DNA from: Ginglymostoma cirratum
Taxonomy: Eukaryota
Assembly: GCA_024137785.1 (NCBI GenBank)
Contig: JAHRHZ010000021.1
Location: forward strand, 41,145,769-41,209,768
Direction of reading: 5' to 3'
Length of the DNA stretch: 64,000 nucleotides
Shown here: positions 33,271 through 63,999 of the stretch, piece by piece
Layout: each line of letters begins with the position of its first letter
How positions within the stretch are numbered: the stretch's first letter is position 1
Made by a program: the position numbers and the translations under genes
The notes under the pieces: model-generated
What the model saw: the letters and a program-made list of their open reading frames with translations, nothing else
The model's database searches: none
Told to the model about the DNA's origin: nothing

Positions 33271-35356
33271 TTTCTTTCCCAGTTCCAATATTCACACTAC
33301 GGTCAAGAATTCCCTCCCAAACCCTTCACATCTCCGTCTCTCATCTCTATGTCTAAGTTGTTGGCCATCCCTCCAAATATTTGGCTTCATCATGCCACTG
33401 TGAAGTACTTTGGGATATTATTACACATAAATGTGAGTATTTACTATTATTTCGAGGTGACAGTCTATTGTATCAATTTATTTCCAATGCCATGTAATGA
33501 CTTACAAATTTAGTACATCATTTAATTACCATAGTTTAGTTAATTTATACTTCCCATAATGGCAATTTTGCTTCAATCCTTGTTCTTAAATAGAGTTCAA
33601 TCAAAATGTAACATACACTCACAAATCAGTAGACTTAATCAAATGATAAGCACCAGAAGTGAATTAGAAGTAAATTTACAAGAATAAATGCTGTTAACAT
33701 CATGAACATACAGGGTTATTGGACCATAATGTGTAATTACTGGGAATCTAATGGTATCCATCAAGACTTGCCCCTGTTCCATTCACTAATTTTGTTCACT
33801 AGGTGACTGAAAGTGTGATCTGCTAGGAGTTATGTACTCCACCATTACTTCCAATGCCTCTGACTCCCTCTCCCGATGACCCTGCAACCTGGAAATGCCA
33901 CTCACGCAGCATCATTAGCCTTGCTCTGGGACGTAGGGGGTGCTCCTCTGCCAGCAGCCATGGCTGTCTCCATGGTACTGCTGAGCACAAGAGGCTGGCA
34001 GCTGTTGCTGGGCAGGATTTCTACCCTGGGGATCTTGCATGCAAGGGGAGGCCTGCAGGTTGTCTCTATGCCAGCAGATTGGCATTCGGTTCAGTGGGGC
34101 TTTCCTGGATGAGGCAAGACAAGGTTTTTTGCCAGCTCCACAGCCAACAGGTGAGGCTCCTGACACCTAAACCAATGAAAGGAATAGTAAGTTTGGAGTA
34201 AGCTACAGAAAAATTGAAACAGAGGTAATATATAAAATAATAAAGTGACATTTTTAAAATGTATATAAAAATCTGTGACCTGTAAGAGTGAGATATCACT
34301 TGTACCACTTAATTTCCAGGGCCAGAAAGGGTGCTGGCAGTCATTATGCCATTAAAAAGCTACTTGTGCTTTACTTCCCACTTTTAATTTAAGGGGACGT
34401 TAAACTGTATTTACAACACAAATATTGCAACTTCATGAAGCATGTCAATAGCAAGACAGAGAGTGAAATAATGTTTTTCATGAAGCTTTGTGCTTGCTAA
34501 ACAGTACACCACCATCATTTAGATATTTATATTTAACCTCAAATCTGGCCCTTGCCTGTTGTTTTTGCACTATTTATGTTTAGGAAAAATACTACCATTA
34601 GCCTTATTGTTATTTTGAAATCAAAAACAGGACCATTGTTGTTTCAACCCAAAGTCAGATCTTTATTTAGAAACCCATTATTTCTTGAACCTCTCCCAAT
34701 CTGGCAACTTTAACAGAGCAGTATCAGGTTAACAGGAGCAGCACTGAAGCTAATTTAAAATTCTAGCACGATCACGTGCCTGGGTTATCCCCAAATATTC
34801 TCAATCAAGATTTTCCTGGTCTGCCTTATTCCAGGAAATGAACCCAATTACACAATATTCAAAAAATCCCCAGAAAATCTCAAGCTTCTAGTTTCATTAT
34901 TTCTACTCTCAATTATCCTCGACAGGCGCTCCTGCTACCTCTCCCAATGGTGCCCTGCATTCCCATGTTACCACTTTCTTCCTTAACTGTTATGCCCAGA
35001 CACACACAATGCTGAGCTGTTGAAGACTATGTTTCTTTGCCACTTTCTCTAACTAACACAGTTGATTATGTTCCACTCACAATTTCTAAACAACTGCTTA
35101 TTTTCTGTACTGCTGCCTCATGCCGCACTGATCTAACTACAAACTTGATTAGCACCATATCTACAAGCATCCATTCTCTCCACCACTGACGCTCAGCAGC
35201 AGCAGTGCATACTATCTACAAGATGCACTGCAGGAATTCACCACTGATCCATAGACAGCAACTTCCAAACCCATTGCCCCTTCCATCTGGAAGAACAAGG
35301 GCAGCAGACACATGGGAAGAGCACCACTTGCAAGTTCCCCTCCAAACCATTCTCCA

Positions 35357-35528
35357 AGGTTTTAGAGTAGATTTGTAGCTCGGGTTGTGGATATTATGGT
35401 TGGTTGGCTCGCCGAGCTGGTTCGTTGTTCTGCAGCTTCATCGGAGGCTGCACTGATGATGTTACCCAGCAGGGTAATGAAACGTCTGCGGAACAACAAA
35501 CCAGCTCGGCAAGCCAACCAACCACAAA
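35357..35528. mobile_element. 172-bp fold-back Penelope-like insertion (family D)
   Basis: Inverted arms 35397-35435 / 35486-35524. 13-bp TSD AAACCATTCTCCA (35344-35356) / AAACCATTCACCA (35529-35541). Confidence 0.85.
35448..35491 (+). ncRNA. Minimal type-I hammerhead ribozyme motif
   Basis: Stem I CUGCA/UGCGG; core CUGAUGA (35453-35459) plus one extra U; stem II GUUACCC-AGCA-GGGUAAU; GAAA (35479-35482); palindromic ACGU loop 3; GUC cleavage triplet ending at 35486. Confidence 0.8.
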
Positions 35529-36574
35529 AAACCATTCACCATCCTGACGTGGAAATATATCGTTGATCCTTCACTGTTACTGGGTCAAAATCCTGGAATT
35601 CTTTCCCTAGGGACATTGTGGACCAATCTACAAAAAACACACACTACCCCACCCACAAAAATCCTCACTAAATCATCACTCCATATCTGCTCCAACGCAG
35701 TTAATGACTCCCAACTTCTGCTGAAGCAGCAACTGCAACTCCCATCCTCCAATCCATGACCACTTTCTCCATTCATTCCTCAGTAGTCTTATTGTGCTCC
35801 TAATGTCCCACCACTTACTCCTCTCTCCAATGACCATTTGTATCCTCCAGCTCCAACGTCTTCTGACACTATTTCTCCACCCCCGCCTTGTTGCTTCTCG
35901 CTCTTTCTCATCCCCAACAACCAGATCTATCTCACAGCTGTGAACTTCCATCACACCCTACCAGCTGTCTTCAGCTGCTCACTGTACTCTCCTGTTCACC
36001 CCATCACCAAGGTACACCTCAGGACCACAGAGAAAAACATTGCAAAGCTAAAAACTAGAAAAAAACGCTGACCATGTTTCCACCCTGCAAGTAGGAAATT
36101 TGCAGCTAGTTAAATCTACTCGTCAAATGAACTAGGAATTAATAAACAGTTATAATTATGTACATTTGTAAATTTAGATGACTCTCCCTCGGGGAGCTAT
36201 TATGCAGAGGCCAGGCTCTGCATCCCATACCCTAGCAAACAAAAACATAGTGTTATTGTGATGTGATACAAGTATCCCCATTCATGAGGCAGCTAATAGC
36301 CTATTGTGCTTATGATCCTGCCATCACTAGTAAAGGAAGTTTATATTGAAATATTTTCCATAGAAACTTCAAAGCAGTAACCTTGAAAGCCCCCTGTGAG
36401 CTATCCTGAAAGTTTGATTCATAAAGATGACCACAACTTGATTTTAGTGGCTCTTGCGTTGCAGGATCAGATTGTTAATGCTGCAAAATCCACAGAGAAC
36501 TGCTTTTTGTCCATATCCCATACCACTCCAGTTCTGATTTTTCTTTGATAATATAGCAGTTTTGTTTCTTCTTT

Positions 36575-62699: not shown

Positions 62700-63999
62700 A
62701 CCAAATTGGATGTATCTGGTCCAGCAAACCCCGAGAAGTGATTGTCAGCAATGCTTAGAAGCTGAGAGAGACAGCTGTCTCCAATCTGCTGTACCACAGG
62801 TTTAAGGGAACAATGTGACTATCTTGCCAGAAGCTAAGCCTGTATTTAGGGCCTCTGTGGTGCAGAGCTGCCTGTGGTGCCACAAAGACATTTACTGTAG
62901 TGCTGCAGCTGGTGATGAGAGATTCCACTAAGGCTTGCCATCTGTGAATCATTCTGGCAGACAATCTCCAATCCCTGCATGTATGCGTCATTCCATTGAG
63001 AGCTTTATCCTGTAGCAATTTAGCCAAGAGCCAATGACCTCGATATTCTTGTTGAAAATGCCAGACCTCTCAATTTCTACCTTTCCCATGTGCCCAGCAT
63101 TCCTGTGCACTCCTCCCTGATGCATGCTGATGGATGGGTTTGGTTGATGTTTGACAAGAAGTTGGTGAATTATGGCATGTGCCAGATACATTTCAGTCCA
63201 GTACCAACTTGGCTGCAGGACTTGAAGCTGATAACATTTCCACAAATTGCTGCCCTGTTCTTCTCAGTGGTAAGGGTCAAATGGCTGGAAGGTGCCAAGG
63301 TTAGTTTGATGACTTACCATCCCATTGATACCTACTGCAACCATTACGTGCTGCTGGTGATGGGGCAACAGTGCAGTAGACTGCTTTAACTTGGAAACTT
63401 CTGAGCTCCTTGAGTGTGATTACACAATCTTCACAAAGCAAGTGGAATGATTATAGTTGATAGTGGAAAGGAATGAGGGGTCAGGAGCGTAGGGACTTGC
63501 TACAATGAACCTGGCCTGTGCCTTGCCCTTGTACGCATAGAAATAGCTTGCTTAGTTAAGCTTCTGGATGTGATGCTGTTGAAGGTCGGGTTAAATTAGT
63601 TAGCTCTTCTCTTTCTGTATTATTAGACACATAACGTGACATTAACATTATCTTCTGCTTGTCAGCCAAAATTTGGACAATCTCCTCTGCAATAAACTGC
63701 TCCTTTGTTGACTTTGGCAGGAATGGAATTGAATGCTTCAGAGACAGTAGGAACTGCAGATGCTGGAGAATCTGAGATAACAAGGTGTAGAGCTGGATGA
63801 ACACAGCAGGCCCAACAACATCAGAGGAGCAGGAAAGCTGACGTTTCAGGCCTAGACCCTTCTTCAGGGGAAACTGTAGATAGTTGGGCCAAGGGCAATA
63901 TCCCATCAAATTCCTACAACAATGTCCTGGGGCTGTAATGATAGACCTCTGATAACCATGACCATCTTTCTTGTCAGATGTCAGCCCATCTACTGGCAC
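62700..63999 (-). mobile_element. Very degenerate CR1-group LINE body
   Basis: Patchy antisense similarity to 17465-18830 (TGTGCCAGATACATTTCAGTCCAG; GATAGTGGAAAGGAATGAGGGGTCAGGAG). Confidence 0.45.
63741..63867 (-). mobile_element. Solo Penelope-like 3' end (family A) with hammerhead-like core
   Basis: Near-identical to 45054-45180. Minus strand begins CUGAAGA-A-GGGU CUAG GCCU-GAAA-CGUC. Confidence 0.9.

Follow-up and report, generated by a model that had tools for sequence, protein, structure and literature searches.

The insert at positions 35357–35528 of the analyzed Ginglymostoma cirratum DNA (a stretch of 64,000 nucleotides, hereafter the window) is a 5′-truncated copy, arranged head to head, of an autonomous retrotransposon of the Penelope/Poseidon type. 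The locus as such is an ordinary dead Penelope insertion, a stub. Across the family, the starts of such arms show an excess at the first base after the predicted hammerhead cut; this family-level peak is real, and it is likely a minor in vivo footprint of self-cleavage.

Structure of the Insert

Direct reading of the region 35357–35528 revealed the hammerhead, two inverted arms, and the flanking 13-bp target-site duplication. Family positions are given on a scale whose zero (0) is the base immediately following the predicted cut (35487); the family reference is a majority ruler derived from 23 long copies. The following features were distinguished:

35150–35640 (outer limits approximate), plus strand: decayed C-terminal region of the host LINE ORF2, split by the insert (flank translations)
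35344–35356, plus strand: target-site duplication, left copy, 12/13 identical to the right copy
35357–35393, minus strand: 37-nt "tail", present in a single arm only (arm comparison)
35357–35435, minus strand: tail-bearing arm, family −1/0 to +77, from the predicted cut to the downstream reverse transcription start region (ATG+105)
35435, no strand: seam base fitting both arms (comparison with the family ruler)
35435–35527, plus strand: tail-less arm, family −52 to +40, with the end of the GIY-YIG frame, the whole hammerhead, and the ORF start
35448–35491, plus strand: minimal type I hammerhead (sequence; architecture according to PMC4209133)
35448–35452, plus strand: stem I, 5′ strand
35453–35459, plus strand: CUGAUGA core
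35454–35461, plus strand: ORF stop codons within CUGAUGA, overlapping the start ATG at 35459–35461 (family frames)
35460, plus strand: single extra U
35461–35467/35472–35478, plus strand: stem II, 7 bp, first pair G.U
35479–35482, plus strand: GAAA
35482–35485, plus strand: ACGU palindrome
35487–35491, plus strand: stem I, 3′ strand (stem I of 5 bp)
35529–35541, plus strand: target-site duplication, right copy, 12/13 identical to the left copy

The arms are inverted with respect to each other over 42 nt (35394–35435 and 35486–35527) with 90% complementarity, and their identity to the ruler was 96–98%. Of the 79 nt of the minus-strand arm (read from 35435 to 35357; family −1 to +77), 3 differed from the ruler, as did 2 of the 93 nt of the plus-strand arm (35435–35527; family −52 to +40). 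Since G35435 fits both arms, the minus-strand arm starts at −1 or 0, in agreement with the preliminary description, which placed the start of the inverted arm within about 1 nt of the predicted cut.

The 13-bp duplication described earlier was likewise found on both sides of 35357–35528; in relatives of the host element its motif was single-copy, as seen in the comparison with contigs of sequencing runs. Separate translation of the two flanks placed the insert in the C-terminal coding part of a LINE ORF2 with a WNS.P-type motif, which corrects the earlier description of the host as a CR1 tail. We take the clade of this LINE to be CR1. High-copy depth was observed at 35122–35639 when contigs of 4 sequencing runs were compared with the window; none of these contigs spans the locus, and an empty-site allele was accordingly not observed among them. 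The concept of the tail was taken from the study of PAc, the Poseidon element of Anolis carolinensis (PMC11167929).

Hammerhead Motif

The motif contained the CUGANGA and GAAA core, an NUH triplet (GUC, with the predicted cut after C35486), stems I and II, and a palindromic 15.2–16.2. Direct reading of 35448–35491 confirmed that all of the core elements listed earlier are present, and both the architecture and the reverse transcriptase (RT)/GIY-YIG context of the parent element agree with the proposed assignment to the Penelope-type minimal type I hammerheads. As in the minimal hammerheads (min-HHRs) of metazoan Penelope-like elements (PLE; PMC4209133), stem II was of 7 bp, stem I was of 5 bp, helix III was absent, an extra base was located between 9 and 10.1, and 15.2–16.2 was palindromic. 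The G10.1–C11.1 pair, highly conserved in that source, is in contrast replaced by G.U in the window copy and its subfamily. An Rfam scan of the region detected no hammerhead family at E ≤ 10, returning 9 unrelated weak matches.

Among 217 family motifs, the first five pairs of stem II and the first four of stem I were paired in 92–99%. The first pair of stem II (10.1–11.1) was G.U in 151 motifs and G–C in 53, the latter mostly from a sister subfamily. U at 11.1 was found in 130 of the 141 motifs carrying linked markers of the window copy's subfamily, and C in 32/44 motifs of the sister subfamily. The G.U pair of the window copy is thus inherited from its subfamily; the earlier suggestion that it arose by CpG decay of G–C fails for this copy, U being the subfamily majority, and such decay may instead have taken place in a master copy and been inherited later. 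Compensatory stem changes were not found among the 217 motifs, the changes being of CpG type only.

A second hammerhead-bearing repeat family is represented in the window by two motifs, at 63867 and 45180, both on the minus strand. In its 115 motifs, stem II pairs 2–4 and stem I pairs 1–2 differ from those of the Penelope family and are still paired, which is a contrast between families.

If the window copy is transcribed, the 3′ strand of its stem I would, in the predicted fold (−85.5 kcal/mol, z = −12.9), be base-paired to the inverted arm. No activity is therefore predicted for its ribozyme, which would be locked in a long hairpin.

Parent Element and Arm Layout

The searched genome was 4.36 Gb in size. 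A 16-nt anchor just past the cut identified at least 4093 arms, and a 31-nt tail motif had 137 exact matches, the first 90 of which, the window copy included, formed the unfiltered sample. In long copies, the upstream DNA reached frames with remnants of GIY-YIG and RT motifs. Locus L353 contained a 573-aa frame with an RVT_1 match above the Pfam cut-off (E = 2.6 × 10⁻⁸), and its companion frame, of GIY-YIG type, stopped just ahead of the hammerhead; in locus L099, the GIY-YIG match (E = 0.001) was below the cut-off. A CxxC...YIGQTGR motif was present in frames running to the hammerhead. Comparison of the 573-aa RT frame with PDB sequences gave no match. The order of RT followed by a C-terminal GIY-YIG is that of EN+ PLE, and every copy seen was broken.

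The start ATG lies 28 nt ahead of the cut, with 105 nt from the ATG to the end of the tail, so that the ORF starts within the terminal repeat, at stem II of the hammerhead, also as in EN+ PLE. Since the stop codons overlap the ATG in the core, the element is nearly devoid of untranslated region, and cut linear RNA would lose the start codon.

The identity of the arms to the ruler, the RT and GIY-YIG upstream, and the layout together indicate that the insert consists of two truncated ends of the autonomous element; the label "Poseidon-type" is suggested by the layout. The remnants carried upstream by family copies support the earlier proposal of mobilization by a PLE RT/GIY-YIG. The other part of that proposal, a dedicated non-autonomous RNA processed by the ribozyme, was not upheld: the arms are ends of an autonomous element, seams vary between copies, 72/76 tail arms (see below) read through the ribozyme, and the second arm of the window copy contains it uncut.

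An inverted upstream partner was present at 48/90 tail-anchored loci. The partner arm ended at +34 to +48 in 36 of these 48, and the anchored arm ended near +77. An inverted 5′-truncated partner, a one-sided tail of 30–40 nt, and a target duplication, all found here, are features of EN+ PLE. The seams varied widely across the 48 inverted loci, and the window copy was among the shortest of its layout. By analogy with PAc, in which the tail arises from two RT start sites and both nicked strands are extended, we infer that a pair of cDNAs was linked in head-to-head orientation.

Arm Starts at the Predicted Cut

In the unfiltered sample, 76 tail arms reached +5; 72 passed −14, 2 stopped at −1 (the window copy and L035), and 0 stopped at position 0. 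Starts at −1 other than that of the window copy amounted to 1/89, and of the 36 partner arms lacking a tail, not one began at 0 or −1. Cleavage is thus not the main route.

An enriched sample was composed of anchored arms without family bases at −14/−13 (92 + 49 matches, all retrieved), with starts called by a script. After merging one segmental duplicate, it comprised 140 distinct arms. We excluded 17 mutated read-through arms and 30 arms with family DNA in sense orientation upstream, most of these being internal deletions. The remaining 93 junction arms, which started between −12 and +5, showed a sharp peak at a single base: 23 started at 0, and the other 17 positions had 1–9 starts each, with a mean of 4.1. 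The histogram of arm starts relative to the GUC site thus showed the peak that the preliminary description had anticipated. Compared with a simulated null (uniform starts, same filter and caller), the excess was evident both in arms with non-family DNA upstream (12/50 at 0 vs. 2.9 expected, P = 2 × 10⁻⁵) and in those with an inverted arm upstream (11/43 vs. 2.8 expected, P = 8 × 10⁻⁵). After 10 palindromic or microhomology arms at 9 loci were dropped, 13/83 starts remained at 0 (P = 0.002). The caller misplaces a few arms in both directions; it assigned +3, for instance, to L233 and to one arm of L131, whose starts lie at 0 and include a mutated base.

A second design required non-family bases at −2 and −1 and gave 45 matches, 44 of them distinct: 25 junctions at 0, 12 read-through arms, and 7 sense arms. 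About 7 junctions at 0 were expected by an estimate based on 4.1 per position and a filter pass of about 0.4 vs. 0.7; this sample partly overlaps the first. Overall, about 1% of the 4093 arms start at 0, in agreement with the unfiltered sample. A third cut-site sample, with 100 of 132 matches listed, had 21/100 rows at 0 by eye; the script, applied to its first 30 loci, placed 5/23 at 0, 3 of them repeating earlier arms, and these were not counted as independent. Both arms begin at 0 in the hairpins L131, L233, and L507, with 4, 0, and 2 filler bases, respectively; the filters favour some hairpins of this kind.

Several controls were analyzed. In a window from −65 to −46, with 100 of 136 matches listed, the script found 61 junction arms among 74 arms (first 72 rows), with 0–6 per position and no peak confined to one base. 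A strict reading by eye of the 100 listed matches gave a broad hump at −53 to −50, with 13 rows at −53 and 11 at −52, coinciding with the start of the other arm of the window copy. The discrepancy arises from the script, whose caller tolerated variant letters of the subfamilies and so flattened the hump. The hump indicates that stop rates vary without any cut. A second sharp hotspot at −52, a candidate transcription start, was an impression by eye that failed the scripted count and was rejected. A further control around −140, with 83 matches and 24 control matches, was flat by eye, with at most 5 rows per position, and is a weak test. Many 0-starts have T or TG in common with the partner sequence. 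Base preference fails to explain the peak, since the T/TG starts at −2, −9, and −12 hold just 5, 2, and 2 arms. As for replication in the second hammerhead family, its motifs dominated the genome-wide motif search (about 2580 matches); of the 454 matches left by filtering, 100 were listed and inspected by eye; mutated read-through copies dominated among them, and a palindrome is centred on the cut.

The same 11-nt deletion, located between short direct repeats, was found in 12/91 filtered arms (L126, L133, L211, L218, L219, L225, L234, L238, L245, L253, L260, and L265). Its loss takes away the cut site together with the greater part of the stem I 3′ strand; the deletion may be either recurrent or the mark of a ribozyme-dead sublineage that still moved.

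Discussion

We consider it probable that the insert is a Penelope by-product of two reverse-transcription events, the short arm of which ends at the end of hammerhead-cut RNA. The two events would have been primed from the two nicked target strands. One cDNA would have begun at the tail site, near +77, and run off at the 5′ end (0) of cleaved RNA; the other, copied from uncut RNA, would have run from the tail-less site, near +40, to a stop at −52, after which the two cDNA ends would have been joined with no more than 1 nt of shared sequence. Cleavage would be a side route affecting about 1% of arms and not the normal path. The peak is read as RT run-off on cleaved RNA because it is one base wide and lies at a site named in advance, and the double-0 hairpins are as expected if both templates were cut, which the dimer model in PMC4209133 allows.

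The same by-product could have formed on uncut RNA if the RT paused or switched templates at the helix junction of stem I. In the lowest-energy fold, this junction lies exactly at −1/0, with stem I continuing into a 4-bp helix from −1, and on strict reading stops are likewise more frequent around the small hairpin located at −53 to −50. Such a reading also accords with the reports that HHR cleavage is dispensable for PAc in vitro (PMC11167929) and that min-HHRs are poor cleavers in vitro (PMC4209133). However, neither the foot of stem II (−9) nor that of stem I (+4/+5) showed an excess (2, 4, and 2 of 93 starts), and a pause accounts less readily for a peak one base wide at a site predicted beforehand or for three hairpins in which both arms begin at 0. 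We regard pausing as unlikely.

More serious is the reading in which the family peak reflects real cleavage and the arm of the window copy is a random truncation at −1 with 1-nt microhomology to the −52 arm; to this we give a chance somewhat short of even. G35435 fits both arms, and starts at −1 are close to background (6/93), yet the shared G is explained by the partner arm alone, and position 0 is used about 4–5 times as often as −1. That arm boundaries record in vivo cleavage is likely for the family peak; for the window copy, with its seam at −1 or 0, the odds are about even.

A small non-autonomous hairpin RNA processed by the ribozyme and copied as a unit, similar to a retrozyme or a SINE, is very improbable. 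Locus L004 has the same seam (−52 joined to −1/0) and L010 is within one base of it, but both came from a likeness-ranked search in which 40/3108 candidates were scored, and the seams of the 48 inverted loci differ widely. Retrozymes are reported to derive from PLE ends and, like the insert, non-LTR retrozymes are short, non-coding, PLE-derived, and hammerhead-bearing (bioRxiv 10.64898/2026.07.22.740005); unlike the single inverted insertion in the window, they consist of tandemly repeated units, each bearing a hammerhead. No tandem hammerhead units were found at the locus, which has one hammerhead and no direct unit repeat within 34800–36200. We rejected copying as a unit given the variable seams, the ends of both arms at the two priming sites of the family, as in a fresh insertion, and the blocking of stem I in a hairpin with this fold.

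Returning to two joined cDNAs, the closest known system is PAc (PMC11167929), in which the cut is located 26 bp past the start codon and RT starts at 111–118. Common to PAc and the shark family are an ORF starting at hammerhead stem II with the cut 26–28 nt further on, two RT start sites flanking a tail of 30–40 nt, and, in PAc, nicking and extension of both target strands. The tail positions are shifted by some bases, being ATG+105 and about +68 in the shark-family element. Hammerhead mutants of PAc inserted normally in vitro, and the source reports no RNA-seq reads ending at the cut; that study thus saw neither RNA ends at the cut nor a need for cleavage in vitro, whereas in the shark family the starts of genomic arms accumulate at this site. 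With other EN+ PLE (PMC8557442, PMC3846280), the family shares head-to-head arms, a tail on one arm, duplications of 8–17 bp, and variable truncation; the window copy is at the short extreme of the adjacent inverted 5′-truncated insertions described there. The inverted layout is attributed in PMC3846280 to self-priming on an antisense template, in contrast to the double priming that the PAc data suggest here. The relevant passages of PMC8557442 and PMC3846280 do not relate arm ends to the ribozyme.

The element type, its layout, and its ribozyme are already known. The role of the hammerhead in PLE is called unclear in PMC8557442, and PMC4209133 states that in vivo evidence for it is lacking. 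Our full-text literature search, covering few subscription journals and no supplements, found no analysis of insertion ends relative to the cut site. We lean slightly toward the view that Penelope insertions keep a fossil record of germ-line hammerhead cuts at the predicted base, the cut RNA having been copied into dead-end stubs. If so, cut RNA keeps both RT start sites and is sometimes copied on both strands, as from a ribozyme dimer. Cleavage would then be an off-switch or a circularization step and not normal maturation, since it detaches the start codon from the ORF. A one-base excess of insertion ends at the cut can be read out cheaply from any repeat-rich genome and yields a direct prediction for the PAc assay already available.

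The base preceding 0 in 25 junction arms starting at 0 was A in 12, T in 10, and G in 3; the A, common without microhomology, is possibly an untemplated addition. Loci L501 and L503 have a common seam, in which the early ORF, downstream of the tail, is joined directly to 0, possibly by a template jump or through copying of a chimera. Locus L518 (G000:C133:26961399-26961606) carries an inverted duplication of non-family DNA bordered by two arms, both of which start at 0.
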